The notes under the pieces are model-generated. The model had not been told where the DNA came from. It saw only the letters and a list, made by a program, of their open reading frames with translations, and searched no databases. Source: a virus (taxonomy: Duplodnaviria; Heunggongvirae; Uroviricota; Caudoviricetes). From it: a stretch of DNA of 37,471 nt. Location of the stretch: IMG/VR virus record IMGVR_UViG_2531839523_000005. One strand, 5' to 3'. Positions 1 through 37,471 of this stretch are shown here, piece after piece (position 1 is the first letter of the stretch; the number at the start of each line of letters is the position of its first letter). Both the position numbers and the translations under genes were made by a program.

Positions 1-275
1 TACCGACTGCGGCCTGAGTTTTTTAAGTGACGTAAAATCGTGTTGAGGCCAACGCCCATAATGCGGGCTGTTGCCCGGCATCCAACGCCATTCATGGCCA
101 TATCAATGATTTTCTGGTGCGTACCGGGTTGAGAAGCAGTGTAAGTGAACTGCAGTTGCCATGTTTTACGGCAGTGAGAGCAGAGATAGCGCTGATGTCC
201 GGCAGTGCTTTTGCCGTTACGCACCACCCCGTCAGTAGCTGAACAGGAGGGACAGCTGATAGAAACAGAAGCCAC
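1..275 (-). CDS. insA: IS1 InsA, GTG start at 275, stop codon falls at or just past the window edge
   Basis: Minus-strand translation from GTG (273-275) reads [43 protein letters not shown]...; not in the ORF track because the stop is not inside the window. Confidence 0.85.
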
Positions 276-330
276 TGGAGCACCTCAAAAACACCATCAT
301 ACACTAAATCAGTAAGTTGGCAGCATCACC
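1..330 (-). mobile_element. IS1 insertion sequence, left end (IRL plus insA region), truncated by window edge
   Basis: Reverse complement of 301-330 is GGTGATGCTGCCAACTTACTGATTTAGTGT, the canonical IS1 terminal inverted repeat; the InsA frame follows. Confidence 0.9.
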
Positions 331-1172: not shown

Positions 1173-1745
1173 TTACATTTCAGGTTGCGTTATGACAGTC
1201 CCAACAGGGTGATAGCGGTAGATCGTTGACAGTCCAATATCATAGATAATTGCCAGCCGCTTTCTGTCATACCCTTTCTGGAGCAATCTTGCGATCTGCT
1301 CATGCTGCTCCTTCGTCAGTTTCGGGCGACGTCCTCCAACTCTTCCTTGTGCTCGCGCAGCAGCCAGTCCTGCCAGCGTGCGCTCAACTATCAGTTCACG
1401 CTCCATTTCTGCCAGTGCACCCATCATATGAAAAAAGAACCTTCCCATCGGAGTGCTGGTATCGATTGAATCCGTCAGACTGCGAAAATTGACACCTTTT
1501 GCGCGTAGCTCTTCTGTGAGAGCAATGAGGTGTTTCATTCTTCTACCCAACCGATCCAGCTTCCAGACCACCAATGTATCCCCTCTTTTAAGGCACTTTA
1601 AAGCGCGTTTCAGGCCTGGTCGTTCCGACTTGGTTCCGCTCATTTTGTCCTCAAAAATCTGTTCACATCCTGCGCACATTAATGCATTGCGTTGCAAATC
1701 TATGTTTTGGTCATTTGTTGACACACGTATGTAGCCAATCAGCAT
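1173..1745 (-). CDS. gin: Serine recombinase, Gin/Pin/Hin-family DNA invertase
   Basis: [49 protein letters not shown]…; true start taken as the internal Met at 1745 (RBS AAAGGGAG upstream); the longer track ORF 1173-1874 is an in-frame N-terminal extension. Confidence 0.9.
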
Positions 1746-1799
1746 TAAAAATACTCCCTTTTGAGTGGTTAAAGTACTGAGATAATGTGGGGAGGATTT

Positions 1800-1825
1800 G
1801 AGAGATAAACGTTGGTTTGGGGGAA
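1800..1825. other. Candidate gix-like crossover site at outer boundary of left inverted repeat
   Basis: CAGAGATAAACG-TT-GGTTTGGGGGAA resembles the AAACC-NN-GGTTT core of Gin/Hin recombination sites; inner half lies inside the inverted repeat. Confidence 0.4.
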
Positions 1826-2010
1826 GGCTCTGCATTGCCTGTTGGTGTACCGGTTCCATGGCCCACCGCCACACCGCCAGCAGGCTGGTTAAAGTGCGAC
1901 GGGCGCGCCTTTACAAAAGAACAATATCCTGTTCTGGCCAGAGTCTACCCGACCCTCCGTCTTCCCGATTTACGCGGTGAGTTTATCCGTGGATGGGACG
2001 ACGGGCGCAA
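1812..2010. repeat. Left arm of perfect 199-bp inverted repeat flanking the invertible tail-fiber segment
   Basis: 1812-2010 is the exact reverse complement of 3230-3428 (checked at both ends and in the middle). Confidence 0.85.
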
Positions 2011-2329
2011 AGTTGATACAGGACGTAAGTTGCTGTCCGCACAAGGGGCAACGCTGTTAAGAACAGCAATGCTGGATTATTATAACCAGGACACTACGGG
2101 AACCTCGGGGATAGTCGGCATGGGATTCAACAATGAAGATTCCATTACAGACCTTCGTGAGGGCAGCTTTAAAATGCCGGACGGGACAACATTCAGCGAT
2201 CCTGTCGTGGCAATGTCAGACAATGGTATGCAGGCTACTATTCTGACCTCTATCAGAAGCGGGTATGCGAAGGGTATCACTGTCAGACCCCGTAGCATTG
2301 CACTTAATTACATTGTGAGGGCAGTTTAA
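1817..2329 (+). CDS. Alternative tail-fiber C-terminal cassette (silent orientation); first ~65 codons lie in the inverted repeat
   Basis: Translation starts GEGSALPVGVPVPWPTATPPAGWLKCDGRAF… identical to the expressed fiber, then diverges; ends …RSIALNYIVRAV like the expressed cassette (…RNIAFNYIVRAA). No own ATG (track start is TTG inside the repeat). Confidence 0.7.
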   Translation: MGEGSALPVGVPVPWPTATPPAGWLKCDGRAFTKEQYPVLARVYPTLRLPDLRGEFIRGWDDGRKVDTGRKLLSAQGATLLRTAMLDYYNQDTTGTSGIVGMGFNNEDSITDLREGSFKMPDGTTFSDPVVAMSDNGMQATILTSIRSGYAKGITVRPRSIALNYIVRAV

Positions 2330-2943
2330 TGAGTAACACTGCAGTTCTGGATGAAAACGGTATCGCCACTGTAGCGGGCGATATCACTGTATATCACTAT
2401 GACGAGGAAACCCGGGAATACACCTCATCCTCTGTGGAGTATCTCGCCCTTGGGGTGGGTACTCCGGCACATTCGTGCGCCGATGCACCGCCGGAGGCAA
2501 TTTCGGGTTACGTGGTTTGCCGGACTGCCACGCTGAACGGGTGGGAGCATGTGCCTGATCACCGCGGCGAGACGGTATACAGCACGGAGAACGGTAACCC
2601 TGTTCTGATTACCCAACCGGGTGATTACCCGGCGGACACCACCACAAAACAGCCAGCCACGCCATGGGATACCTGGAACGGTGAGGCGTGGGTAACCGAT
2701 ACTGAACGGCAGCGAGCCGCAGAACTGGAGGTTGCCAGACAGCAACGCCAGCAACGGGTGAAACAGGCGATGGCGTCAGTCGATCTTATCAACCTCAAAC
2801 TGCGTGCTGGTCGCAGTCTGACACCAGAAGAAACGGCAAAACTGAACGCCGTGCTGGATTATATCGACGAGCTGAACGCACTGGATATCAGCACGGCACC
2901 TGAAATCAGCTGGCCGGAAGCGCCACTGGCACTTGCCAGTTGA
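2329..2943 (+). CDS. Tail fiber assembly protein (Mu U / Tfa-like), coupled to the silent cassette
   Basis: 204 aa; overlapping ATGA stop-start with upstream cassette; convergent with the expressed fiber gene. Confidence 0.75.
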   Translation: MSNTAVLDENGIATVAGDITVYHYDEETREYTSSSVEYLALGVGTPAHSCADAPPEAISGYVVCRTATLNGWEHVPDHRGETVYSTENGNPVLITQPGDYPADTTTKQPATPWDTWNGEAWVTDTERQRAAELEVARQQRQQRVKQAMASVDLINLKLRAGRSLTPEETAKLNAVLDYIDELNALDISTAPEISWPEAPLALAS

Positions 2944-2949
2944 ACGGTA

Positions 2950-4248
2950 TCACGCCGCCCTCACGATATAGTTAAACGCGATATTGCGGGGGCGGGTTAT
3001 GTTAAAGAATGCTCCGTTTAATTCGGCTTTTGCGCGACTGTTTGTTCCACCCAGAATTACGTACCACAAATAATCGCTACGGTAATTCCCCGCAAACACC
3101 TTATCGCCGCCATAGTCAATATTATTTCCGTTACTCATGTACGAGATATCAAGCGAAGAATCGTTATCGTCATGACCGCCGACCAGTGTACCTTTCTGCC
3201 ATGAAAGCAACTTACGCCCCTCGTCAATCTTGCGCCCGTCGTCCCATCCACGGATAAACTCACCGCGTAAATCGGGAAGACGGAGGGTCGGGTAGACTCT
3301 GGCCAGAACAGGATATTGTTCTTTTGTAAAGGCGCGCCCGTCGCACTTTAACCAGCCTGCTGGCGGTGTGGCGGTGGGCCATGGAACCGGTACACCAACA
3401 GGCAATGCAGAGCCTTCCCCCAAACCAAGGTAATTGAGGACATCTTTTATACTGCCCTTAGCGATAATAGCGCGACCAATAGCTGTAAGGGTTGCCAGCG
3501 CTGCGCGGTCTGCTCCGGTAAAATAAGGCAACCGATCTGCTGCAGTGGCAAGTCCTGCCAGAGCAGTGAGCGTGGCATCTGCCGGTTGTTTTCCGTTTGC
3601 CAGATCGTATGCAGCCTTGACCGCTTTCGGTGTGGCGGCCAGTATTTCAGACGTGCTGTTGATGGCACTGCTCAGTTGTACGGTGCCTTTTGCCGTCAGC
3701 GAGGCAGCAGGCACTCCCGTTATCTGACTCCACGGGTGAGTGTGGCTGACGGGCGCCTTGCCGGCTGCAAGGTCGTATGCAGCCTTGACCGCCTTCGGCG
3801 TGGCAGCCTCAGTTTCTGATTGACTGTCCGTGGCGCTGCTCAGTTGTACGGTGCCTTTTGCCGTCAGTGAAGCCGCAGGCACTCCCGTTATCTGACTCCA
3901 CGGGTGAGTGTGGCTGGCAGGCGCCTTGCCGGCTGCCAGGTCGTATGCAGCCTTGACCGCTTTTGGTGTGGCGGCCAGCGTTTCAGAGGTGCTGTTGGTG
4001 GCACTGCTCAGTTGGGTGAACCCCTTAGCTGTCAGTGTCGCGTCCGGGTGGTTACGGGAACGTACGTGTTCAGCCAGTGACTGTGCGGCTTCCTCCGTTT
4101 TCTTCTTCAGCCATTTCGTCCTGTTTGCCAGTTGCCGGGGGGCTCGATTTGATATCCCGTCTGCACCACCCAGAACCGGATCTGATGTCTCCAGTTGATA
4201 GATATTTTCTTCCCACTTTTCTGTTTCATTCAGGTTTCCCATAATCAA
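2950..4248 (-). CDS. Tail fiber protein (Mu S-like), currently expressed orientation
   Basis: 432 aa; three tandem copies of a ~56-aa PKAVKAAYDLAAGKAP…HTHPWSQITGVPA repeat; C-terminal part shared with and then divergent from the plus-strand cassette. Confidence 0.85.
   Translation of the reverse strand: MIMGNLNETEKWEENIYQLETSDPVLGGADGISNRAPRQLANRTKWLKKKTEEAAQSLAEHVRSRNHPDATLTAKGFTQLSSATNSTSETLAATPKAVKAAYDLAAGKAPASHTHPWSQITGVPAASLTAKGTVQLSSATDSQSETEAATPKAVKAAYDLAAGKAPVSHTHPWSQITGVPAASLTAKGTVQLSSAINSTSEILAATPKAVKAAYDLANGKQPADATLTALAGLATAADRLPYFTGADRAALATLTAIGRAIIAKGSIKDVLNYLGLGEGSALPVGVPVPWPTATPPAGWLKCDGRAFTKEQYPVLARVYPTLRLPDLRGEFIRGWDDGRKIDEGRKLLSWQKGTLVGGHDDNDSSLDISYMSNGNNIDYGGDKVFAGNYRSDYLWYVILGGTNSRAKAELNGAFFNITRPRNIAFNYIVRAA
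3230..3428. repeat. Right arm of perfect 199-bp inverted repeat
   Basis: Reverse complement of 1812-2010; lies inside the tail fiber coding sequence. Confidence 0.85.
3415..3440. other. Candidate gix-like crossover site at outer boundary of right inverted repeat
   Basis: Minus-strand reading CCTCAATTACC-TT-GGTTTGGGGGAA; same inner half as the left site. Confidence 0.35.
3545..4048. repeat. Three tandem 168-bp coding repeats inside the tail fiber gene
   Basis: GTCGTATGCAGCCTTGACCGC recurs at about 3604, 3772 and 3940 (period 168 bp). Confidence 0.8.
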
Positions 4249-26364: not shown

Positions 26365-27093
26365 ATGACGCAGACACTGAATCCGGTCATCACTGTCACC
26401 GTGTCCGGTCCTGTGGGCAGCGGTAAAAGTTACGTACTGGCGCGAATAGAGGAAGTGGTGAAACAGGAATTCGGAAACAGCGTCATTGTCGACGCCGCAG
26501 ACGTGGACGGTGAGCGCCGTATGAGTGGGGATGATCTGAGCACATGGCAGAAACCACGGGCTGGCACAGTGATCAGGCTGGAGGAATACACGGGACAGGG
26601 CCTGTTGTCATACGGCGAGGAGCGTATCTGTCGGACGAATGAGCTGCTGGATGTTATATGCCCCACGGGCCGGCAACCCTGGATACTGCCCGATGCACTG
26701 CATGCCACCATTGCGGCACTGATGACAGTTTACGATCAGGAGCTGCTCATGAAGGAGTTACGTAAACTCACTGGTCAGTCAACAGAATGTTGTTCGTCCC
26801 CGAAGTACGGCAAACAGGAACACATCCCGATTAACCAGCCTCCCCGGTTCTTCGACGAATACCTTCTGACACCGGAAAATAAAGCTGAGCATGAAGAGAT
26901 CAAAGCGGCGTTGTTCCGGGAAATCAGGAAGATTGCTGAAATGCAACTGGAGGGCGGGCTGGACAGAGTGATGGCGAGAGGAGAATGGGCATCGCTGTTT
27001 GAAAGAGTTTCCCCGGAATTACTTCCCCTCGCACTGGCTATCGGGATTATGCAGACAGCGGATAAACCTCACTTACGTTCATTAAACACGTAA
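26365..27093 (+). CDS. P-loop NTPase-like protein of unknown function
   Basis: Walker A VSGPVGSGKSYV near N-terminus; GAGGAG RBS; opposite strand to late operon. Confidence 0.6.
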   Translation: MTQTLNPVITVTVSGPVGSGKSYVLARIEEVVKQEFGNSVIVDAADVDGERRMSGDDLSTWQKPRAGTVIRLEEYTGQGLLSYGEERICRTNELLDVICPTGRQPWILPDALHATIAALMTVYDQELLMKELRKLTGQSTECCSSPKYGKQEHIPINQPPRFFDEYLLTPENKAEHEEIKAALFREIRKIAEMQLEGGLDRVMARGEWASLFERVSPELLPLALAIGIMQTADKPHLRSLNT

Positions 27094-27473
27094 CGCATAA
27101 TCCGGGATACGCATTCAGCGATGACTGCATTTTCACCGGTTTTTACTGCATCCAGAAGTGACTCTTTAAATGGTACGGGCCGGGGCTGCAGAAAGGTCGG
27201 CATGGCATTGAGCAGACAGAGCGTTTTTTCCGTGAGGACGACATCAGCCGCTCCCACAGCCAGCAACTGAGAGTAACGAATATAGCTGTTATCCCGAAGC
27301 CATATCAGCGTATCAATAAAACACCGGCACTTTTTCTGGTCGTGATCAACCTGGTCCGGGATATCGAAAAAACCAGAATAAATCAAAACCTGAGGTGCCG
27401 GATGCGTGTTCAGTAATCGGCAGAATATTTTGCCGGTGAGTACATAAAAATCATCATTTAAGGAGTGCATCAT
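27069..27473 (-). CDS. Hypothetical protein, head-to-head with 27472-27687
   Basis: 134 aa; 3' end overlaps P-loop gene by 25 nt. Confidence 0.4.
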   Translation of the reverse strand: MMHSLNDDFYVLTGKIFCRLLNTHPAPQVLIYSGFFDIPDQVDHDQKKCRCFIDTLIWLRDNSYIRYSQLLAVGAADVVLTEKTLCLLNAMPTFLQPRPVPFKESLLDAVKTGENAVIAECVSRIMRYVFNERK

Positions 27474-27687
27474 GAATCCCCGATTAACGTTAACAGAACA
27501 TCAGCGCCGTGCTGAAGCAGTGAACAATGTTCTGGAAGATATTATCCGGTTATACCGCGGAGAACTGAGTGTCTGTCGTGCCGCTTTTCATTTTCAGGGA
27601 ATACAAAAGCAGTTTGATACTTCTGTTTTTGCAGAAGGTATTACTTATGCCCTGGACCGGATAAGGTCAGAAAATCGCCCCGGATAA
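27472..27687 (+). CDS. Hypothetical small protein
   Basis: 71 aa; strong AAGGAG RBS 6 nt upstream of ATG. Confidence 0.4.
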   Translation: MNPRLTLTEHQRRAEAVNNVLEDIIRLYRGELSVCRAAFHFQGIQKQFDTSVFAEGITYALDRIRSENRPG

Positions 27688-27742
27688 TCCCTAAACCACA
27701 TTAACAGAAATCCCGCCATCCCTGCCGCATCATGAAAGAACG

Positions 27743-27772
27743 ACCAGCCCGGCACCCGAAAGCCGGGCTGGT
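27743..27772. terminator. GC-rich stem-loop between the small ORF and the methyltransferase gene
   Basis: ACCAGCCCGGC-acccgaaa-GCCGGGCTGGT, perfect 11-bp stem; no clear T-tract on plus strand. Confidence 0.35.
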
Positions 27773-27877
27773 CATCGCCCCACAGGAATGCGCTGTGAGC
27801 CGACCAAGGTTCAGTCAGTCTCGCGAGACCTGACCAGACTGCCATATTTTTTAATAATTGTAAAAGGCTTACAGATT

Positions 27878-28642
27878 ATGAAAATGCAGACATTACCCAT
27901 CGTGCCGTGGATTGGTGGCAAACGCCGCCTTGCAAAACACATTCTGCCGCTGTTTCCGGCGCATGAATGTTATGTGGAGCCGTTTTGTGGGGCAGCAGCG
28001 CTCTATTTTCTTAAGACACCCGGCAAGATCGAAGTCATCAATGATATCAACGGTGAACTGGTGAATCTGTACCGGGTGGTAAAGCATCACCTGGAAGAAT
28101 TTGTCCGCCAGTTCAAATGGGCGCTGGTCAGCCGTCAGATCTACAAATGGCTGCAGATCACCCCGGAAGAAACACTGACGGATATCCAGCGTGCGGCACG
28201 GTTCTACTACCTTCAGAAGCAGGCGTTTGGCGGCAAGGTGGCAGAGCACAGCTTCGGTACCTCCACCACATCCCCGCCACGCTTCAACCTGCTACGTATT
28301 GAAGAAGAACTGTCAGCGGCACACCTGCGGCTTTCCAGAACAGTCATAGAACACATGGACTGGCAACAGTGCATTGAGCGTTATGATCGTCCGCACACGC
28401 TGTTCTACTGCGACCCACCGTACCTGGGTACGGAAGGCTATGGTGTGGATTTTCCTGAAGGGAACTACTCGCGGCTGGCAGAGCTGGCCCGGTGCATCAG
28501 AGGAAAAATGATAATTTCGGTGAACGACATCCCGCAGATGCGCGAGGTGTTCACTGGACTGAACATACAGACAGTGAATATCAACTACAGTCTGGCGGGT
28601 AAACCCACGCCGCGCCGTGAACTGCTAATCTGCAACTTCTGA
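27878..28642 (+). CDS. Dam-family N6-adenine DNA methyltransferase (orphan)
   Basis: VPWIGGKRRL, VEPFCGAAALYF, DINGELVNLYRVVK and YCDPPY motifs; start taken at MKMQTLP (27878), the track ORF begins at 27788. Confidence 0.9.
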   Translation: MKMQTLPIVPWIGGKRRLAKHILPLFPAHECYVEPFCGAAALYFLKTPGKIEVINDINGELVNLYRVVKHHLEEFVRQFKWALVSRQIYKWLQITPEETLTDIQRAARFYYLQKQAFGGKVAEHSFGTSTTSPPRFNLLRIEEELSAAHLRLSRTVIEHMDWQQCIERYDRPHTLFYCDPPYLGTEGYGVDFPEGNYSRLAELARCIRGKMIISVNDIPQMREVFTGLNIQTVNINYSLAGKPTPRRELLICNF

Positions 28643-28649
28643 AACAAAA

Positions 28650-28672
28650 CCGGAAAGCACAATGCTTTCCGG
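28650..28672 (-). terminator. Intrinsic terminator downstream of the repressor gene
   Basis: CCGGAAAGCA-caa-TGCTTTCCGG, 10-bp stem; on the minus strand followed by UUUUGUUUC. Confidence 0.5.
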
Positions 28673-28758
28673 TAAACCAAACAACTTCCACTATGTCACT
28701 GGCGATGTTTTCTGAAAGCATCCAGATCAACCACCTGTCCTTTGTGTCCGGGTCAGTA

Positions 28759-29768: not shown

Positions 29769-30689
29769 ATGGGACGTACCAAATCACCGATTAACACTGA
29801 ACTGAACGCCGATGTACCGCTGTCGGATGATCTCAACGTCAGCCTGAATGCCATGACACAGCATCGCATGGAGATCATGCAGCAGTTTGGTGATGGACTG
29901 CCTTATGAACGTGAACGCATCGTTCACGAAGCACGTTTTTATATGGCGCAGAGTGCTGAATCTATGTTGGAAGCGGGTAAGCGGCTGATCATCTTAAAAG
30001 AAAATGAACCGCATGGTGATTTCACAAATATTCTGGAAAACGACCTCGGATTAGCACCACAGGTAGCTCGTCGCATGATGCAGGCCAGCGTGAAATTTCT
30101 CGGCAATGGAGATGAACAGCCAAAACGCTCAGCGCTGAGCGTTTTGGGAAAAACCAAGTTATATGAACTGATGGTTCTGGATGACGAAGAACTCGACGCA
30201 TTAGCTGATGGTGGAACCGTCGCCGGTGCAACGCTTGATGATATTGATCGCATGACCAGCCGCGAACTGAAGGCCGCCCTGCGTGAAGCGCGCGAAACCA
30301 ACGCAGCTCAGCAACAGGTGCTTGCCGGAAAGGACGAAAAAATCAACGAACTGGCCACAAAACTGGAGAAGAAATCGCGCCTGCAACCTCCGCCGCCAGA
30401 CGAAGAACTGAAAAAATTGCGGGCGGAAGTGACGGCATTAGCGGTTGAGGCCGAATCGGCTATCGCCGTCCGGCTGTCCAGTGTTTTTGAGACCCTGTGT
30501 GAATACTGCACCAAAAACATGATCGATACCCCCAGAGATTTCATGGCCGGTCTGGTCTGCCAGATTGAACGCAGTGTTCATGCATTACGTGAGACGTTTG
30601 ACCTTGAGGCCGCTCCATCGGGTAACGATGCCCCCGCCTGGCTGACCGAACCGGAACCTGAAATCAACCGACCGGAGGATATGCAGTAA
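29769..30689 (+). CDS. Hypothetical early protein with coiled-coil and Pro-rich linker
   Basis: 306 aa; TAAGGAG RBS. Confidence 0.55.
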   Translation: MGRTKSPINTELNADVPLSDDLNVSLNAMTQHRMEIMQQFGDGLPYERERIVHEARFYMAQSAESMLEAGKRLIILKENEPHGDFTNILENDLGLAPQVARRMMQASVKFLGNGDEQPKRSALSVLGKTKLYELMVLDDEELDALADGGTVAGATLDDIDRMTSRELKAALREARETNAAQQQVLAGKDEKINELATKLEKKSRLQPPPPDEELKKLRAEVTALAVEAESAIAVRLSSVFETLCEYCTKNMIDTPRDFMAGLVCQIERSVHALRETFDLEAAPSGNDAPAWLTEPEPEINRPEDMQ

Positions 30690-31006
30690 TGAATACGAAT
30701 AACACACAAAATACCCTGATGGACAGCCCGGAGGCACTGGGGCACGCACTGTGTAATCTGCTGCCGGAGATGGTGCAGGGTTTCCGCGTGGTGACCCCTT
30801 CCGGTGAAATCTGCGTACCCGCACAGGAGACGCACCCGTTTGTACTGACGATGGAGGTGATGCTGATGCAGCAGATAAGACGTCTGCAGAATCAGTCAGC
30901 ATTACGCCCGGTAGTTGCACCGCAACCGGTAAATACCGTGGTGAAAACCTGCGATGGCGAAACACTGTGCGACCTCGCCAGAAAAATTGCCGCCAGAATC
31001 GGATAA
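30689..31006 (+). CDS. Hypothetical early protein
   Basis: 105 aa; start overlaps upstream stop. Confidence 0.45.
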   Translation: MNTNNTQNTLMDSPEALGHALCNLLPEMVQGFRVVTPSGEICVPAQETHPFVLTMEVMLMQQIRRLQNQSALRPVVAPQPVNTVVKTCDGETLCDLARKIAARIG

Positions 31007-31021
31007 CAGGGAAGACAAGCT

Positions 31022-32791
31022 ATGACCCCGGCACTGACTGAAAAACTGGTTGAAACAGCCCGCGCGGCACGTGACGCGGGGCATGGTAAACGCGGTGCAA
31101 TATACGACGCTGCCTGTGCTGAACTTGGCATGTCCCGCGCCACTCTGCTGCGCAGGCTGAAGGAGGTATCTGTGACTGATAAACGCAAAAACCGCGCCGA
31201 TGCCGGGCGCAGCGCCCTGACCCGCGACGAAGCCGCGCTGATATCTGCCACACTGCGTGAGGCCACCCGCAAGAACGGTAAGCGTCTCTATTCCATCGCA
31301 GATGCAGTGGAAACCCTGCGGGCTAACGGCTTTATCACCGCAGGCAGAACAGATGAAACCACCGGTGAGTTTTTCCCGTTGTCTGAAGATGCCATCAGCC
31401 GTGCTCTGCGTAACTATGGCCTGCACCCGGAACAACTGGATGCCCCTGCACCACATACCGAAGTGGCCAGTCTGCATCCCAATCATGTCTGGCAGATTGA
31501 CGCCTCACTCTGCACGCTTTACTACCTGAGCAATGGACATAAAGGGCTGCAGGTGATGGACAGCGCGAAGTTCTACAAGAACAAGCCCGCTAACCTTGCC
31601 CGTATCGCCAGTGACCGCGTGTGGAGTTACGAGATTACCGACCATGCCAGCGGCTGGATTTACGTTGAGTATGTGACGGGCGCGGAATCAGGTGAGAACC
31701 TGTGTTCTGTGCTTATCAACGCCATGCAGGAGCGTGGCGGCGCAGACGTGCTGCACGGCGTGCCGAAAATACTCTATCTCGACCCCGGCTCGGCAAACAC
31801 CGCGGGTATGACGAAAAACATGTGCCGCTCACTGGGCATCGACCTGATAGCGCACAAGCCGCATAACGCCCGCGCCACCGGACAGGTGGAAAAGGCGCGT
31901 GACATTATCGAACGCAAGCTGGAGCCGGGTCTGAAGTTCCGGCCGGTTCACAGTCTGGAAGAACTCAACGCGCTGGCCGCGAAATGGCGCAGCCACTTTA
32001 ACGCCACGGCTGTTCACAGCCGCCACGGTAAAACCCGCACGGATATCTGGCTGAAGATTACTGCTGAGCAGCTGAAAAAAGCGCCTTCCGTTGAGGTATG
32101 TCGTGAACTGGCTGTGGCGGCACCAGAACTCCGCAAAGTCACGCCAAAACTTCGTGTCTCGTTCCGGGGCACTGAATTTGACGTATCAACGGTACCGGGC
32201 GTACTGGTTGGTGAAAAACTGATGATTACCCGTAACCCATGGCGCAGCGATGTGGCACAGGTGGTTCTGACCGGTGAGGACGGCCACGAGACGTTCTTCC
32301 TGGTCGAAGAGGTCAGAAAGAACAAGTTTGGCTTTGCTGAAGGCGCGGCGGTATTTGGCGAAAGTTACAAAGCCCTGCCGGAAACCCCGGCACAGATGGC
32401 GGCAAAAGAAACCGAAGCGCTGGTTACCGGTACAGACAACGCCGCAGATGCAGCCGCCGCACGCAAGGCGAAGGCGCTGCCGTTCGGCGGGCGGCTTGAC
32501 CCGTATAAACATATCGACGACACCACACTTCCGGCCTATATGCCGAAGCGTGGTCAGGCCTCTGACGTACGCGGGCCGCGCACTGAACAACGTCCCATGA
32601 CTCATGTGGAGGCCGCGAAAGCCCTGCGCGATAAGTTCAGCGCCGACGGCCTTACCTGGACGCCGGAACATTACCGCCAGTTAACGGCACAGTACCCGGA
32701 CGGCGTACCGGAAGCCGCACTGGATGAAGTCATGGCCACGCTGACCACACCGGCCCGCAGCAGTGTTATCAGCATTGTTAACGGCAACTGA
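31022..32791 (+). CDS. DDE transposase (MuA-like transposase A)
   Basis: 589 aa; N-terminal HTH, integrase-core-like HPNHVWQIDASLCTLYY … ILYLDPGSANTAG. Confidence 0.85.
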   Translation: MTPALTEKLVETARAARDAGHGKRGAIYDAACAELGMSRATLLRRLKEVSVTDKRKNRADAGRSALTRDEAALISATLREATRKNGKRLYSIADAVETLRANGFITAGRTDETTGEFFPLSEDAISRALRNYGLHPEQLDAPAPHTEVASLHPNHVWQIDASLCTLYYLSNGHKGLQVMDSAKFYKNKPANLARIASDRVWSYEITDHASGWIYVEYVTGAESGENLCSVLINAMQERGGADVLHGVPKILYLDPGSANTAGMTKNMCRSLGIDLIAHKPHNARATGQVEKARDIIERKLEPGLKFRPVHSLEELNALAAKWRSHFNATAVHSRHGKTRTDIWLKITAEQLKKAPSVEVCRELAVAAPELRKVTPKLRVSFRGTEFDVSTVPGVLVGEKLMITRNPWRSDVAQVVLTGEDGHETFFLVEEVRKNKFGFAEGAAVFGESYKALPETPAQMAAKETEALVTGTDNAADAAAARKAKALPFGGRLDPYKHIDDTTLPAYMPKRGQASDVRGPRTEQRPMTHVEAAKALRDKFSADGLTWTPEHYRQLTAQYPDGVPEAALDEVMATLTTPARSSVISIVNGN

Positions 32792-32801
32792 GGAGGGAAA
32801 C

Positions 32802-33968
32802 ATGCTGGTACTGAAGCAGCAACTGAAAGAGGCCCGTATTCCACAGGCGGTGGTGGCGAGAGCTGTCGATGTTTCTGAGGCCACGCTGGCCCAGATTGTG
32901 AATCATAACGCGTGGCCCCGCACCAGCCCCGGAGAAGTGCGCCGGCGTCTTGCGTCCTGGCTGGAAAGTCAGGGGATTGATACAACGAAGAGTTTTGATG
33001 CTGTACAGGGCGCGGCCACGCCCCGTACAGCGGGTACCACAGATAAAACGAGCCTCAGTGAGGAAGAGAATATGTTACTCAAAAAACAGGTGTTATTTCC
33101 AGCAACCAAAAAAGCGTTTGGTCTTTTCCGTGACCCGTTCGCCGACGAAGCCATGCAGGGTTCTGATGATGTGTTCACCACCCCGGATATTCGCTACGTG
33201 CGTGAGGCGTTGTACCAGACAGCCCGTCATGGTGGGTTTATGGCCGTCATCGGTGAGTCCGGTGCGGGTAAATCCACGCTGCGCCGCGACCTGACTGAAC
33301 GTATCAACCGCGAGAATGCGCCGGTAATTGTTATCGAGCCATACATCATCGCTATGGAAGACAACGATGTGAAAGGGAAAACCCTGAAGGCAGCAGCGAT
33401 TGCCGAAGCCATTATCAGTACCATCGCACCACTGGAAAGCATCAGACGCAGTCAGGACGCCCGCTTTCGCCAGTTGCATCGCGTCCTGAAAGACAGCAGC
33501 CAGGCGGGGTTCAGCCACGTTCTGGTGATTGAGGAGGCCCACAGTCTGCCCATTCCGACACTGAAACACCTCAAACGCTTTTTTGAGCTGGAGTCCGGTT
33601 TCAAAAAACTGCTGTCCATCGTGCTGATTGGCCAGCCGGAACTGGCGACAAAACTGTCTGAACGCAATATGGAAGTCCGTGAAGTCGTTCAGCGCTGTGA
33701 GGTGGTCGAACTTCTGCCTCTGGACAATAACCTTGAAGAGTTTCTGACGTTCAAACTGCAACGGGCCGGTAAACAACTGACGGACATTATGGACGCCAGC
33801 GCAGTGGATGCCATACGTGCCCGCCTGAGCAATCCGGGAAGTCATCGTAAAAATATGGTCAGCCTGCTGTATCCGCTGGCCGTCAGTAACCTGGTAATAG
33901 CCGCCATGAATCTGGCCGCTGAAATCGGGGTTCCACAGGTCAACGCTGACGTTGTCAAAGGGGTTTAA
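32802..33968 (+). CDS. AAA+ ATPase transposition protein B-like
   Basis: Walker A GESGAGKST; N-terminal HTH; AGGAGGG RBS; follows transposase. Confidence 0.8.
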   Translation: MLVLKQQLKEARIPQAVVARAVDVSEATLAQIVNHNAWPRTSPGEVRRRLASWLESQGIDTTKSFDAVQGAATPRTAGTTDKTSLSEEENMLLKKQVLFPATKKAFGLFRDPFADEAMQGSDDVFTTPDIRYVREALYQTARHGGFMAVIGESGAGKSTLRRDLTERINRENAPVIVIEPYIIAMEDNDVKGKTLKAAAIAEAIISTIAPLESIRRSQDARFRQLHRVLKDSSQAGFSHVLVIEEAHSLPIPTLKHLKRFFELESGFKKLLSIVLIGQPELATKLSERNMEVREVVQRCEVVELLPLDNNLEEFLTFKLQRAGKQLTDIMDASAVDAIRARLSNPGSHRKNMVSLLYPLAVSNLVIAAMNLAAEIGVPQVNADVVKGV

Positions 33969-33970
33969 TA

Positions 33971-34240
33971 ATGAAATCCACCACAGGTATCAACCAGCAA
34001 ATCAGCAAAGTGCAGTCAGCCATTATGGCGCTTAAGGCGACGAACACGGATGTACAAAGCATCACCATCAGGGGTAACAAACCTGTCATCCGCGTTTCCC
34101 GGAGTGCGCATTGCATGCGCATGCTTGAGCAGGGAAAGGCCTGTTATCTGTATACCGGTCATGACCACAGGGGACATTTCCGTCAGGGCGTTTTCGAACT
34201 GCACGGCTGTCGCGTCGTGTGGCCGGAATCTTTGTGGTAA
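33971..34240 (+). CDS. Hypothetical early protein
   Basis: 89 aa. Confidence 0.45.
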   Translation: MKSTTGINQQISKVQSAIMALKATNTDVQSITIRGNKPVIRVSRSAHCMRMLEQGKACYLYTGHDHRGHFRQGVFELHGCRVVWPESLW

Positions 34241-34267
34241 TCAGCACAACAGGAGGAGTCATAAAAT

Positions 34268-34798
34268 ATGGCAAAAAGTACAAAAGGGGCAAAACGTATC
34301 AAAGCCGCAGCAGCACTCTGGGTGCCGGGGACACGCGAAGAGGTCATTGAGGGAATCAGACTGCTTGGTGACGCGCAACGTGAACTGGTCAGGGCTGAAA
34401 CAGAAATGAATGACACCATTGGCGACATCACTGCACGTTATGCCCCGCTCACCGAGAGCCTGAAAAAACGCATGGCCGAACTGCAGTCCGGTATCCAGAC
34501 ATGGTGTGAGGCGCACCGTGATGAACTGACCGGCAACGGGAAGGTGAAGTTCGCTAACCTCACCACCGGCGAGGTGCAGTGGCGAAACCGTCCGCCGTCA
34601 GTCAGCATTCGCGGGGCGGATAATGTCATTGAACTGCTGAGACGTCTGGGGCTTGAGCGCTTTATTCGTGTAAAGGAGGAAATAAATAAAGATGCCATTC
34701 TGAATGAAAAAGAGGCTGTGAAAAATATTCCCGGTATTACCATAAAAAGTGATATTGAGGATTTTTCAATAATTCCTTTTGAGCAGGATGTGCAGTAA
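34268..34798 (+). CDS. gam: Gam-like host-nuclease inhibitor (Ku-like DNA-end-binding protein)
   Basis: MAKSTKGAKRIKAAAALWVP… and …ITIKSDIEDFSIIPFEQ match Mu Gam as recalled. Confidence 0.85.
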   Translation: MAKSTKGAKRIKAAAALWVPGTREEVIEGIRLLGDAQRELVRAETEMNDTIGDITARYAPLTESLKKRMAELQSGIQTWCEAHRDELTGNGKVKFANLTTGEVQWRNRPPSVSIRGADNVIELLRRLGLERFIRVKEEINKDAILNEKEAVKNIPGITIKSDIEDFSIIPFEQDVQ

Positions 34799-34895
34799 AC
34801 ACACCACGTTAATTATTTAATAAAAACATTTTCTTTTTTATTCCGGCGTCAGCGCCGCGGGCTTCTGCACGCCGGAAACAGAGGAGAATTAAATT

Positions 34896-35090
34896 ATGAT
34901 ATTTAAATGTATTCAGTGCGAGAGGGATATAACAGCCCTGCGTTTTCACAGCGCCATCGCCGTGATGTCCGGTAAGTATCACATACCTGCAGTACGTGTC
35001 ACCCTGGTCTGCCCGTACTGCAGCCAGCATTTTTCGGCGGACGTGCCCGTCATGGAATTCTCCCGCCCTGACAGGGAGGACGCGCAATGA
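34896..35090 (+). CDS. Small zinc-ribbon-like protein
   Basis: 64 aa with CxxC … CxxC. Confidence 0.45.
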   Translation: MIFKCIQCERDITALRFHSAIAVMSGKYHIPAVRVTLVCPYCSQHFSADVPVMEFSRPDREDAQ

Positions 35091-35359
35091 TTACCCCACA
35101 GGAAGCACGACAGCGCACCCGAACTCTTGTTGAACACTATGTCAACGAGTGTGAATGCCGCGACCTCACCGATGTGAAGCACGTCCTGACGGCGCTAATC
35201 AGCATGGCCACACAGGCCATTGTGGCGACCAACGGAAAGGAGGCTGCCCTGCAGGTACTGATGAACACACTCACCCACACGGCAGAGCATGAGGTGCCGT
35301 ACCGGATGGAAACCACTGCAGAAGGCGGCCTGCACATCACCGTCAGCCGGAAGCACTGA
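35087..35359 (+). CDS. Hypothetical early protein
   Basis: 90 aa. Confidence 0.4.
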   Translation: MITPQEARQRTRTLVEHYVNECECRDLTDVKHVLTALISMATQAIVATNGKEAALQVLMNTLTHTAEHEVPYRMETTAEGGLHITVSRKH

Positions 35360-35368
35360 GGGCGCGGC

Positions 35369-35665
35369 ATGACACGAAACACCGAACTCACCCGCACCGC
35401 CCTCTACCGTCTGGCCCTGCAGCGTTTCGGGCCGGACGCACAGGCCCTGAAACTGGCAGAAGAGGCCGCTGAACTGGCGGCCAGTGCCGCCCGCAACCTG
35501 AACGGACAGGGCAGCGAAAGTGACCTCGCGGCAGAGCTGGCAGACGTGGAAATCATGACAGAGCAACTGCGCCTTCAGGGGATGGACCGGCTGATTGACT
35601 TCCACAAACAGAAAAAACTGGAACGTCTGGCTGCACGACTGGGCGTGATTTACACGAACGAGTAA
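35369..35665 (+). CDS. Small all-alpha protein, possibly MazG-like NTP pyrophosphohydrolase
   Basis: …LAEEAAELAASA…ELADVEIMTEQL… resembles MazG-type motifs; not verified. Confidence 0.4.
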   Translation: MTRNTELTRTALYRLALQRFGPDAQALKLAEEAAELAASAARNLNGQGSESDLAAELADVEIMTEQLRLQGMDRLIDFHKQKKLERLAARLGVIYTNE

Positions 35666-35679
35666 CCGGGAGGCATTCA

Positions 35680-35895
35680 ATGGCTGACATACTCAGGGAA
35701 ATCACCGCATGGACACTGATTCTTACTGGCCTGGCGACATGCCTCAGTGCGGGGGCAGCCCTGGCTGCCCTGCTGATGCACATAACAACACAGTGGTTAT
35801 GGGAAAAGCTTAAAGCAGCATACAGCCTGAAAGAGCTGTCCGACGCTGTCCGGGCATGGAAACGGCAGAAAAATACCGGAGATACAGAACAATGA
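35680..35895 (+). CDS. Small membrane protein
   Basis: 71 aa; one TM helix; GGGAGG RBS. Confidence 0.4.
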   Translation: MADILREITAWTLILTGLATCLSAGAALAALLMHITTQWLWEKLKAAYSLKELSDAVRAWKRQKNTGDTEQ

Positions 35896-36575
35896 CAGAC
35901 CAGAATAAACACATTGAGAAACTGAAAAAGTTGCTGGCGCTGGCCGCATCCGGCAACCCGCACGAGGCCGCTCTGGCACTGCGCCGAGCCCGTAAACTGA
36001 TGGATGTTCACGGCATCACACATTCCGACATTGCTATGAGTGATATTGATGAAACCATCAGTCACTACTGGCCGACAGGCAGTCTCCGTCCACCGCGCTA
36101 CATGCTGGGCCTGATGAACATCATCCGCGAGGTATTTGGTGTTAACTCCATCATTCACCCCGGCACGCATCCGTCTGTGGGGTTCTACGGCAACCGGGAA
36201 CGTGCGGCACTGGCTGCATACACCTGGGAAGTGCTGGCCCGTCAGCTGAAAAAGGCGCGTCAGCAGTATATCAGTGCACAGAACAAAAGAATAAAAACCG
36301 CCACCCGCACCAGCCGTGGAGACCAGTTTGCCGAAGGCTGGGTGCTGGCCGTTATCAGTGAAATACAGTCCTTTGCCCTGACCGATGATGAGCGTGAATT
36401 GATGCAGCAGTGGCTGGAACATAAATACCCGCAGACGCAAACCACCAGGGCGCGTAAACCGGGAAGAAGCCGCAATGGCGACGCCTCGCGCTATGCGGGG
36501 TTTCGTGAAGGGCAGAACGTCAGACTGCACCGCCCGGTCAGTGGGCAGGAACAACAGAAACTGGAGGCCAGATGA
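35892..36575 (+). CDS. DUF2786-like protein
   Basis: Start at MTDQNKHIEKLKKLLALAASGNPHEAALALRRA (35892). Confidence 0.55.
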   Translation: MTDQNKHIEKLKKLLALAASGNPHEAALALRRARKLMDVHGITHSDIAMSDIDETISHYWPTGSLRPPRYMLGLMNIIREVFGVNSIIHPGTHPSVGFYGNRERAALAAYTWEVLARQLKKARQQYISAQNKRIKTATRTSRGDQFAEGWVLAVISEIQSFALTDDERELMQQWLEHKYPQTQTTRARKPGRSRNGDASRYAGFREGQNVRLHRPVSGQEQQKLEAR

Positions 36576-36802
36576 TTACGCTATCAGGTAAAAGCCGGAA
36601 ATTAAAAGCCTGCCGAATATCTGCCAGATACCTTTTTGCCCGCGCCTTTTTTAAGAACGTCAGGCCGGGGATCACAATTGGTGTTATTGCCGGACGCGAA
36701 CAGGTTGAAAAATACATGTCAGGTGCATGGTGGAATAACGACCCTGTCATTGCTGCCCGTAATATTCATATCGAATGGGGAGGTATTCAGAATGACTACT
36801 GA
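36572..36802 (+). CDS. Hypothetical small protein
   Basis: 76 aa. Confidence 0.35.
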   Translation: MITLSGKSRKLKACRISARYLFARAFFKNVRPGITIGVIAGREQVEKYMSGAWWNNDPVIAARNIHIEWGGIQNDY

Positions 36803-36999: not shown

Positions 37000-37177
37000 A
37001 TGCAGAAAAAACGCCTGATACAGCTTATCCATATTGCCCGTAATGAACTGGGTATGGATGAAGACACCTACCGCCAGATGTTACAGGGGCTGACCGGTAA
37101 AGCCTCAACCAAAGGAATGGATACCACACAACTAAACTGCGTGCGTAAGCGTCGTCTCAGCACCGTCTGGCAGATCC
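37000..37177 (+). pseudogene. GemA-like (Mu gp16 / DUF1018-like) gene, interrupted by IS insertion
   Basis: N-terminus …LIQLIHIARNELGMDEDTYRQMLQGLTGKASTKGM… fits the GemA pattern; reading frame runs into the IS terminus and stops after 65 codons. Confidence 0.5.
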
Positions 37178-37471
37178 TGAAATTCCTGAGAGAATAGTGG
37201 ACACCAAATATGGTGGACGCTATTCATGAAATCATTAACCGCAGTGCGTAAAAAAAGCCCTAATTATCCCGTTGAGTTCAAAATCAAAATGGTGGAACTC
37301 TCGCATCGACCAGAGATCTCCGTAGCGCAACTCGCTCGTGAGCATGGGATCAACGATAATTTGCTGTTCAAGTGGCGCCAGTACTGGCGCGAAGGAAAAC
37401 TACGTCCTCCTTCAACAACAGAAAACAACGTGCCTGAGCTGCTCCCGATAACACTTGATGCCGAAGATGTT
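37178..37471 (+). mobile_element. IS3-family insertion sequence, left end (continues beyond window)
   Basis: Terminus TGAAATTCCTGAGAGAATAGTGGACACC resembles the IS3 left inverted repeat (AATAGTGGACAC core) as recalled. Confidence 0.6.
37226..37471 (+). CDS. IS3-family transposase OrfA (HTH), 3' end beyond window
   Basis: MKSLTAVRKKSPNYPVEFKIKMVELSHRPEISVAQLAREHGINDNLLFKWRQYW…. Confidence 0.65.
   Translation, partial: MKSLTAVRKKSPNYPVEFKIKMVELSHRPEISVAQLAREHGINDNLLFKWRQYWREGKLRPPSTTENNVPELLPITLDAEDV

Follow-up and report, generated by a model that had tools for sequence, protein, structure and literature searches.

The window analyzed here, i.e., the whole 37,471-nucleotide (nt) stretch of IMG/VR virus record IMGVR_UViG_2531839523_000005 (Duplodnaviria; Heunggongvirae; Uroviricota; Caudoviricetes), is a BcepMu-like transposable prophage carrying a DNA adenine methyltransferase gene (hereafter the methylase). 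Immediately upstream of it, on the opposite strand, lies an element that is, as read from its sequence, an independent small RNA gene with its own promoter element, a one-strand structure, and a terminator-like 3' end. The two genes and their parts are as follows (all positions are those of the window):

27878..28642, plus strand: predicted solitary D12-class (alpha-group) N6-adenine DNA methyltransferase, 254 amino acids (aa), from its open reading frame (ORF) and motifs, PF02086, TIGR00571, RefSeq, and dN/dS (ratio of non-synonymous to synonymous substitution rates)
27864..27867, plus strand: Shine-Dalgarno AAGG read from the sequence, 10 nt 5' of the ATG, within an invariant AAAAGGCTTAC block; invariant across aligned Enterobacterales relatives
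27836..27844, minus strand: extended -10 element TGgCAGTCT of the RNA gene (TG at 27844-27843, hexamer CAGTCT at 27841-27836)
27732..27830, minus strand: conserved structured small RNA gene, ~100 nt, ends inferred, from a covariance model, a minimum free energy (MFE) fold, covariation in 62 sequences, and G.U strand bias
27830-27817, minus strand: RNA hairpin P4, self-complementary but variable in sequence
27812-27809 pairing with 27741-27738, minus strand: RNA helix J, which closes a three-way junction
27804-27774, minus strand: RNA helix P2, G.U-rich
27773-27742, minus strand: RNA helix P1, GC-rich
to ~27732, minus strand: pyrimidine/U-rich tail of the RNA

In relatives, the ~150 bp 5' of the methylase ATG are 84–86% identical, with synonymous sites of the adjoining gene saturated (dS ~1), and the alignment of this region contains hairpins with compensatory changes. 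A covariance model of the RNA (R1) gave a single full-length strong match in the window (151.9 bits, E=2e-34), and the MFE fold of the window sequence by itself recovered P4, J, P2, and P1 (z=-3.7). Across the 62-sequence alignment, 92.7% of cells are paired and 38 of the 40 pairs have changed on both sides; the covariation score reaches 0.602, compared to 0.218 in shuffled alignments (0/500 reach the observed value) and ≤0.113 with slid partners. Helix J, for instance, occurs as GAAC/GUUC, GGGC/GCCC, GAGC/GCUC, and CAGC/GCUG, and the joining strand is conserved as CCUUGG. The sequence AGTCTCGCGAGACC varies in relatives yet stays self-complementary, and it is therefore read as helix P4. The idea that this palindrome is an operator also used by the early region was rejected, the window containing no second copy.

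The strand of the RNA was read from G.U pairs. Cells with a G.U pair number 178 on the minus strand vs 3 on the plus strand in P2, 61 vs 21 in P1, and 5 vs 0 in J, with the same trend in sequences outside the model-building set. P2 is paired in 98% of cases on the minus strand vs 69% on the plus strand (core set), and the RNAalifold energy of the region is -42.7 kcal/mol vs -27.7 kcal/mol. The G.U asymmetry therefore places the RNA on the minus strand. On that strand, a (T/C)ANNNT hexamer (TAGAAT, TAGGCT, CAGGCT) is found 22–26 nt 5' of helix J in 60 of the 62 loci, about half of them with a preceding TGn; its position implies an RNA that starts where the P4 base lies, and hence a length of ~100 nt.

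Searches of Rfam 15 returned no credible match for the window copy at E≤10 (all hits far below gathering scores) and none at E≤0.1 for nine diverse loci, and the PGAP annotation lists no non-coding RNA at the locus. A "D12-methyl" motif, reportedly described by Weinberg et al. in 2017, was not found in the main text of that study and, if it is included in Rfam, does not match this RNA. Relative to databases and the accessible literature, both the RNA family and its almost constant association with a methylase clade are thus new, although one member may already be studied under another name. Two records carry coding annotations across the RNA gene, namely an over-long methylase start in PhiKM (PQ738613.1, 29908-30762) and a hypothetical minus-strand ORF in VP882 (EF057797, 20588-20920); both are probably wrong. 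The in-frame ATG at 27788 used in the PhiKM record was rejected as the methylase start because a 1-nt indel breaks the frame in relatives and 4 of 5 substitutions in this non-coding segment would be non-synonymous.

We next consider how tightly the RNA and the methylase are linked. Across 66 loci in genomes or phages of gamma-, beta-, and delta-proteobacteria, a covariance model built from 19 Enterobacterales copies finds the RNA directly upstream and on the opposite strand of the methylase in ~60, with phages B3, VP882, and phiE125 among them, and the RNA also lies beside the 52–58% identical methylases of Stenotrophomonas and Acinetobacter phages. The converse scan of IMG/VR started from a short pattern taken from the RNA rather than the protein, followed by model confirmation. 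It yielded 74 confirmed RNAs, 66 of which have an adjacent and divergent methylase, 1 a frameshifted methylase, and 3 a contig end, while 4 lack a methylase. No RNA was detected beside methylases 35–44% identical to the window enzyme (Sinorhizobium, Clostridium, and Campylobacter phages), and it is absent from the com-mom region of Mu. Adjacency across the clade and absence beside distant methylases thus make the RNA, apart from a few exceptions, a companion of this particular clade of methylases.

The methylase ORF extends from the ATG at 27878 to the TGA at 28640-28642. Its product carries the motifs PWIGGK (aa 10–15), VEPFCGAA (33–40), DINGELVNLY (56–65), and DPPY (179–182), matches PF02086 with 102 bits (E=6e-29, cut-off 22) over profile positions 1–248 of 253, and is identical to the RefSeq entry at the same coordinates, WP_000783854.1 "DNA adenine methylase". 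An earlier note on this DNA, made from the letters alone, had recognized an adenine methyltransferase with these motifs at 27878-28642, and the ORF, the motifs, PF02086, and the RefSeq coordinates all agree with it. The motif order is that of the alpha group, with the catalytic motif IV DPPY C-terminal to the AdoMet (S-adenosylmethionine) motif I (aa 36–40). The dN/dS of 0.05–0.10 against relatives points to strong purifying selection and a functional protein, and the enzyme is predicted to catalyze N6-adenine methylation.

Whether this enzyme is a Dam methylase depends on the level considered. Its placement "firmly in the Dam family" holds for the subfamily, since the TIGR00571 "dam" model is passed narrowly (116.6 bits, cut-off 114.85), but not for orthology with Dam: the equivalog model NF008152 fails at 67 bits (cut-off 441), identity to E. 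coli Dam (EcoDam) is 27%, and residues contacting the target are replaced. In EcoDam, R124 reads a G:C pair and its loss (R124A) removes discrimination at this fourth base pair, Y119 intercalates, L122, P134, and N120 touch bases, and recognition of the first pair falls to K9 and Y138 (PMC4417163). Here, phmmer and MAFFT agree in aligning R124, L122, P134, Y119, N120, K9, and Y138 with A122, K120, P133, F117, G118, P10, and F136, and the replacements of GATC-contact residues are invariant across the methylase clade. GATC is also depleted in the window (95 observed vs 179 expected, O/E 0.53), where it is the second most depleted 4-bp palindrome and is missing from a 6.1-kb stretch of the early region (30521-36670; transposase, B, and gam). 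CTAG, for its part, occurs once compared to 9.8 expected. Equivalog failure, replaced contact residues, and GATC depletion together leave GATC specificity unsupported. The methylase is not demonstrably a Dam ortholog, and its target is probably not read as Dam reads GATC. The analysis agrees with the earlier note that sequence alone does not reveal target specificity.

The surroundings of the methylase were evaluated for a restriction partner. The flanking features are:

26365-27093: 242-aa P-loop-like protein (phrog_3787), with a weak P-loop/AAA signal
27069-27473, minus strand: 134-aa protein (phrog_2266)
27472-27687: 71-aa protein (phrog_4490)
28649..28673, no strand assigned: 11-bp hairpin between the convergent methylase and repressor genes, from a terminator scan and the sequence

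No nuclease domain was detected by Pfam or PADLOC in the neighbors of the methylase (the 242-, 134-, and 71-aa proteins and the helix-turn-helix repressor), and these neighbors have no significant relatives in the PDB. The three small proteins, all of no known function, fill a variable cargo slot between the holin and the RNA (26365-27687), in which relatives carry DUF2441 or other ORFs. Prophages of Klebsiella, Salmonella, Citrobacter, and other hosts encode an 85–88% identical methylase in the same slot with different flanking genes on both sides, and E. coli JJ1886 has an intact methylase but a 242-aa gene interrupted by an IS66 element. The methylase was found at the same position, between the holin of the lysis cassette and the immunity repressor, in all enterobacterial BcepMu-like prophages examined, and is a fixed core gene of this group. 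Judged from these comparisons, it is a solitary enzyme outside any restriction-modification system, as the earlier note had proposed in finding no linked restriction partner; the nearest PADLOC model is nonetheless labeled MTase_II, not orphan. As for the hairpin at 28649-28673, its T-run lies on the minus strand, which identifies it as a terminator for transcription of the repressor gene. The hairpin would keep antisense read-through out of the methylase gene, and methylase transcription may end there as well.

The 1.8-kb methylase region shares 99.9–100% identity with chromosomal prophages and with the Escherichia phage PhiKM, which is placed in Bcepmuvirus, and 547 of 5426 complete E. coli genomes match the locus, 403 of these over at least 80% of the region. 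M.EcoMIV (EC958_1101), encoded by prophage Phi2 of E. coli ST131, was described as an orphan type II D12 methyltransferase whose recognition site was not assigned, with P423_04965 of JJ1886 given as a 100% identical protein (Forde et al. 2015, PMC4659465). In JJ1886, which is also ST131, the sole methylase gene in a 50-kb stretch spanning the Mu-like prophage, located in the aroA-ycaL interval, is WP_000783854.1. The window methylase is thus almost certainly the REBASE enzyme M.EcoMIV. In the EC958 lysogen, its gene was weakly transcribed and no methylation motif could be assigned to it (PMC4659465).

Homologs with 52–66% identity are encoded by unrelated phages at the ends of lysis or tail blocks, including the Mu-like Pseudomonas phage B3, phiE125, phi1026b, VP882 (a linear-plasmid prophage), phiHAP-1, and Acinetobacter and Stenotrophomonas phages. 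An adenine methylase is also among the proteins conserved across Mu-like phages (PMC8541194). A phage-encoded methylase had been regarded as notable in a Mu-like phage; the B3 homolog, the enterobacterial BcepMu-like prophages, and the conserved protein set contradict this, and with the homologs in other phages they make the methylase a rule for several lineages rather than a curiosity. In nine of the relatives (B3 and eight others), a Com-type zinc-finger ORF lies directly 5' of the methylase and overlaps it, between the RNA and the methylase. No com gene was found in the window, either by tblastn with the B3 and Mu Com proteins or by a CxxC...CxxC scan, and a zinc-finger ORF at 3-284 was rejected as a com candidate, the sole zinc-finger match being an IS1 InsA fragment. 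The window locus therefore differs from a Mu-type com-mom module on both counts, with no Com ORF upstream and a D12 methyltransferase instead of Mom.

Taken together, we consider it reasonably probable that this is a stand-alone D12/alpha phage methylase that travels with a divergent regulatory RNA and serves a late anti-restriction role, with the RNA as its regulator. Under this reading, a mobile cassette in which the methylase is joined by the divergent ~100-nt structured RNA and, optionally, by a Com-type zinc-finger gene would have settled in unrelated temperate phages. The methylase would be near-silent in the lysogen and produced in lytic growth, when it would methylate progeny phage DNA and so protect it from restriction in the next host, as Mom does for Mu. 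The RNA would restrain the methylase operon or set a threshold for its expression, possibly by antisense pairing with read-through transcripts crossing the RNA region; relevant to this route, late genes of the same strand lie upstream of the cassette in phiE125, VP882, and B3. Alternatively, back-to-back promoters could compete, and in the E. coli type a minus-strand TGgCAGGCT overlaps a plus-strand TGcCATATT according to a weakly supported reading of the alignment. The timing, the anti-restriction role, and the regulatory role of the RNA are all inferred.

Several observations weigh against this scheme. An RNA starting at P4 leaves the ribosome-binding site un-overlapped, duplex energies between the RNA and the methylase initiation region were the same for cognate and non-cognate combinations (by a crude method), i.e., no specific pairing was seen, and the methylase promoter was not located. 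In two of the viral contigs (L134, 4806-4971, and L177, 10570-10735), a 679-aa tailspike/pectate-lyase-like ORF replaces the methylase at the 5' side of the RNA; the RNA is therefore not strictly methylase-specific, and the region may be reusable before another gene. The phi1026b lysogen transcribes its methylase homolog moderately (21,563 reads per kilobase per million, RPKM; PMC2920897), so that lysogenic silence is not universal. The gp28-30 block of the same phage has been termed a restriction-modification moron (PMC2920897), and Burkholderia phages such as phiE125 (L007, 5506-6240) carry a VRR-NUC nuclease-domain gene 1.7 kb downstream of the methylase homolog. Nothing comparable to VRR-NUC is present in the window, and no annotated nuclease adjoins the B3 and VP882 homologs. 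Finally, motif I of the enzyme reads FCGAA rather than FxGxG, with the final Gly replaced by an Ala that is invariant within the clade.

Other explanations of the upstream element differ in the strand and in the target they assume. It could be the plus-strand 5' leader of the methylase mRNA, such as a SAM (S-adenosylmethionine) or S-adenosylhomocysteine (SAH) riboswitch, or an inhibition structure like the TIS of Mu mom. This would fit its constant position immediately before the leading gene of the methylase operon, a plus-strand fold able to pair CUGUGAGCC with GGCUUACAG beside the Shine-Dalgarno, and an AGCCU...AGGCU repeat (helix A) without strand preference; a portable leader would also be expected to precede another gene, as in the two tailspike contigs. 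We nevertheless regard a leader as very improbable given the minus-strand excess of G.U pairs and of pairing in P2, the lower minus-strand folding energy, and the lack of a match to any riboswitch family. In addition, the minus-strand TAnnnT hexamer, often TGn-extended, is found at 60/62 loci, compared to 8/62 for a plus-strand TAnnnT at the corresponding offset, all of the E. coli type. A minus-strand RNA could instead be an independent trans-acting phage small RNA (sRNA), e.g., Hfq-dependent, which acts on host or other phage mRNAs and shares the cassette without regulating the methylase. Its 3' GC-rich helix and U-rich tail resemble those of trans-acting sRNAs, it is kept without a methylase in 4/74 viral loci, and no pairing specific to the initiation region of its own methylase was seen. 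VP882, which has a copy of the RNA, moreover reportedly makes Hfq-binding sRNAs, VpdS among them, with targets among both host and phage mRNAs (Sprenger et al. 2024, as cited in PMC13397905). A trans-acting role is a serious rival, but we consider it rather unlikely because of the tight head-to-head geometry, with the -10 element ~35–45 bp away from the start codon that opens the operon in 66/74 RNA-first matches, and of a covarying three-way junction more elaborate than a seed-plus-terminator sRNA. A bolder version of the regulatory reading, which we hold only tentatively, would make the RNA the obligate partner of the methylase clade, gating a relaxed non-Dam enzyme, either by binding it or by switching its promoter or translation, where unchecked expression would be harmful.

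Regarding the enzyme itself, it may be a true Dam ortholog that methylates GATC, giving the phage its own Dam supply against MutH- or DpnII-type cleavage or timing a promoter. The borderline pass of the "dam" subfamily model goes in this direction, as do the GATC enzymes DpnM and EcoDam being its best solved relatives, F117 as an aromatic counterpart of the intercalating Y119, and the conserved P..R-aromatic part of the hairpin. Lysogen methylomes without an extra motif (PMC4659465; PMC3868858) would likewise be compatible with GATC methylation masked by host Dam, but the absent motif is equally accounted for by low transcription (PMC4659465). The large shortfall against the equivalog cut-off and the clade-wide exchange of R124 for Ala, and of L122, N120, and K9 for Lys, Gly, and Pro, make a Dam ortholog rather unlikely. 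GATC depletion with a 6.1-kb gap, although suggestive only, is unexpected in a phage protecting its own GATC sites. Far less plausible is that the methylase forms half of an unrecognized restriction-modification or defense system with a nuclease among the 242-, 134-, or 71-aa neighbors. These three genes of no known function (phrog_3787, 2266, and 4490), the weak P-loop/AAA signal of the first, and the MTase_II label leave some room for it, yet none of the neighbors has a detectable nuclease domain, they are exchanged for DUF2441 or other ORFs beside 85–88% identical methylases, and the IS66 insertion in JJ1886 disrupts the 242-aa gene without affecting the methylase.

The rest of the window is organized as expected for a BcepMu-like prophage, with tail, head, and lysis genes transcribed leftward and a block listed as rightward that includes the repressor, a Ner-like protein, the transposase, a B-like ATPase, Gam, and others. 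Non-phage DNA makes up the left end. It carries an IS1 InsA-like zinc-finger ORF fragment (3-284, minus strand) and a 5'-truncated inosine-uridine nucleoside hydrolase gene (PF01156; 326-1075, minus strand), and the insertion site therefore differs from that of ST131 Phi2 (aroA-ycaL) and adjoins an insertion sequence (IS). Next to it, a Gin-like serine invertase gene (1173-1874, minus strand) adjoins opposed tail-fiber and tail-fiber-assembly genes (1817-2943, plus strand; 2950-4248, minus strand), so that 1173-4248 looks like an invertible host-range switch of the Mu G-segment type. At the right end, gemA (gp16; start at 37001) is apparently cut, and an ORF whose translation, read by eye, resembles an IS3-family orfA transposase runs from ~37206 to the window end at 37471. 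JJ1886 and PhiKM have the Mor late activator 3' of gemA; the window lacks it, and this prophage copy may be defective in late gene expression.

By itself, the methylase adds little, as it already had an annotation and a REBASE name and is of a kind usual in temperate phages. It should not be taken for a GATC-specific Dam, however, and this affects how methylomes from ST131 and other lysogens are read. The RNA-methylase cassette, whose constant RNA partner has unusually strong comparative support, offers a testable handle on how phages silence DNA-modifying enzymes during lysogeny and activate them in the lytic cycle. Through its Com-containing variants, the clade is connected to com-mom of Mu, and the RNA may therefore represent a further layer of the multi-layer control known for mom. 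If the RNA were indeed an obligate partner, it would add a new RNA-based principle to the control of phage DNA modification, present in ~10% of complete E. coli genomes including the pandemic ST131, as well as in VP882, B3, and phiE125.

Compared to known systems, the closest counterpart is M.EcoMIV, a D12-domain enzyme that is weakly transcribed in the lysogen and has an unassigned recognition site; at the protein level, nothing sets the two apart (PMC4659465). The window copy occupies another chromosomal insertion, at a truncated nucleoside hydrolase gene and IS elements, and the paper is silent on an adjacent RNA. For VP882, the copy of the RNA lies at ~EF057797 20852-21013 (minus strand) and may correspond to VpdS. 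The methylases of phiE125 (gp27), phi1026b (gp26/27), VP882, and phiHAP-1 are 62–66% identical and located at the end of late blocks, with the RNA upstream where tested (phiE125 and VP882). Their backbones are different (lambdoid siphovirus or linear-plasmid prophage), and their methylases are oriented with the late genes, whereas that of the window phage points away from them. E. coli Dam, T4 Dam, and DpnM (PDB 2G1P, 2DPM) share the fold class, motif order, DPPY, aromatic intercalator, and P..R-aromatic hairpin end; unlike them, the window enzyme fails the Dam equivalog model, is only 27% identical to E. coli Dam, and has R124, L122, N120, and K9 replaced. The Com-Dam pair of B3 (ORF47/ORF48) has a 64% identical methylase and the same upstream RNA. 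Both B3 and Mu com-mom place the modification gene behind a Com zinc-finger translational regulator, whereas the window phage lacks com; Mom, in addition, is not a methyltransferase, and Mu has no copy of the RNA. Mu mom is controlled via host Dam/OxyR and protein C. This control has no visible counterpart in the window, where the conserved region is free of GATC. The RNAs OOP of lambda, sar of P22, and CopA of R1 are cis-encoded antisense or divergent regulatory RNAs. The RNA described here has no sequence or structure homology to them, its three-way junction is unusual for the class, and overlap with its target is only proposed. What it shares with these RNAs is the arrangement, i.e., a small structured RNA with a predicted constitutive promoter, opposite to and immediately upstream of its putative target.

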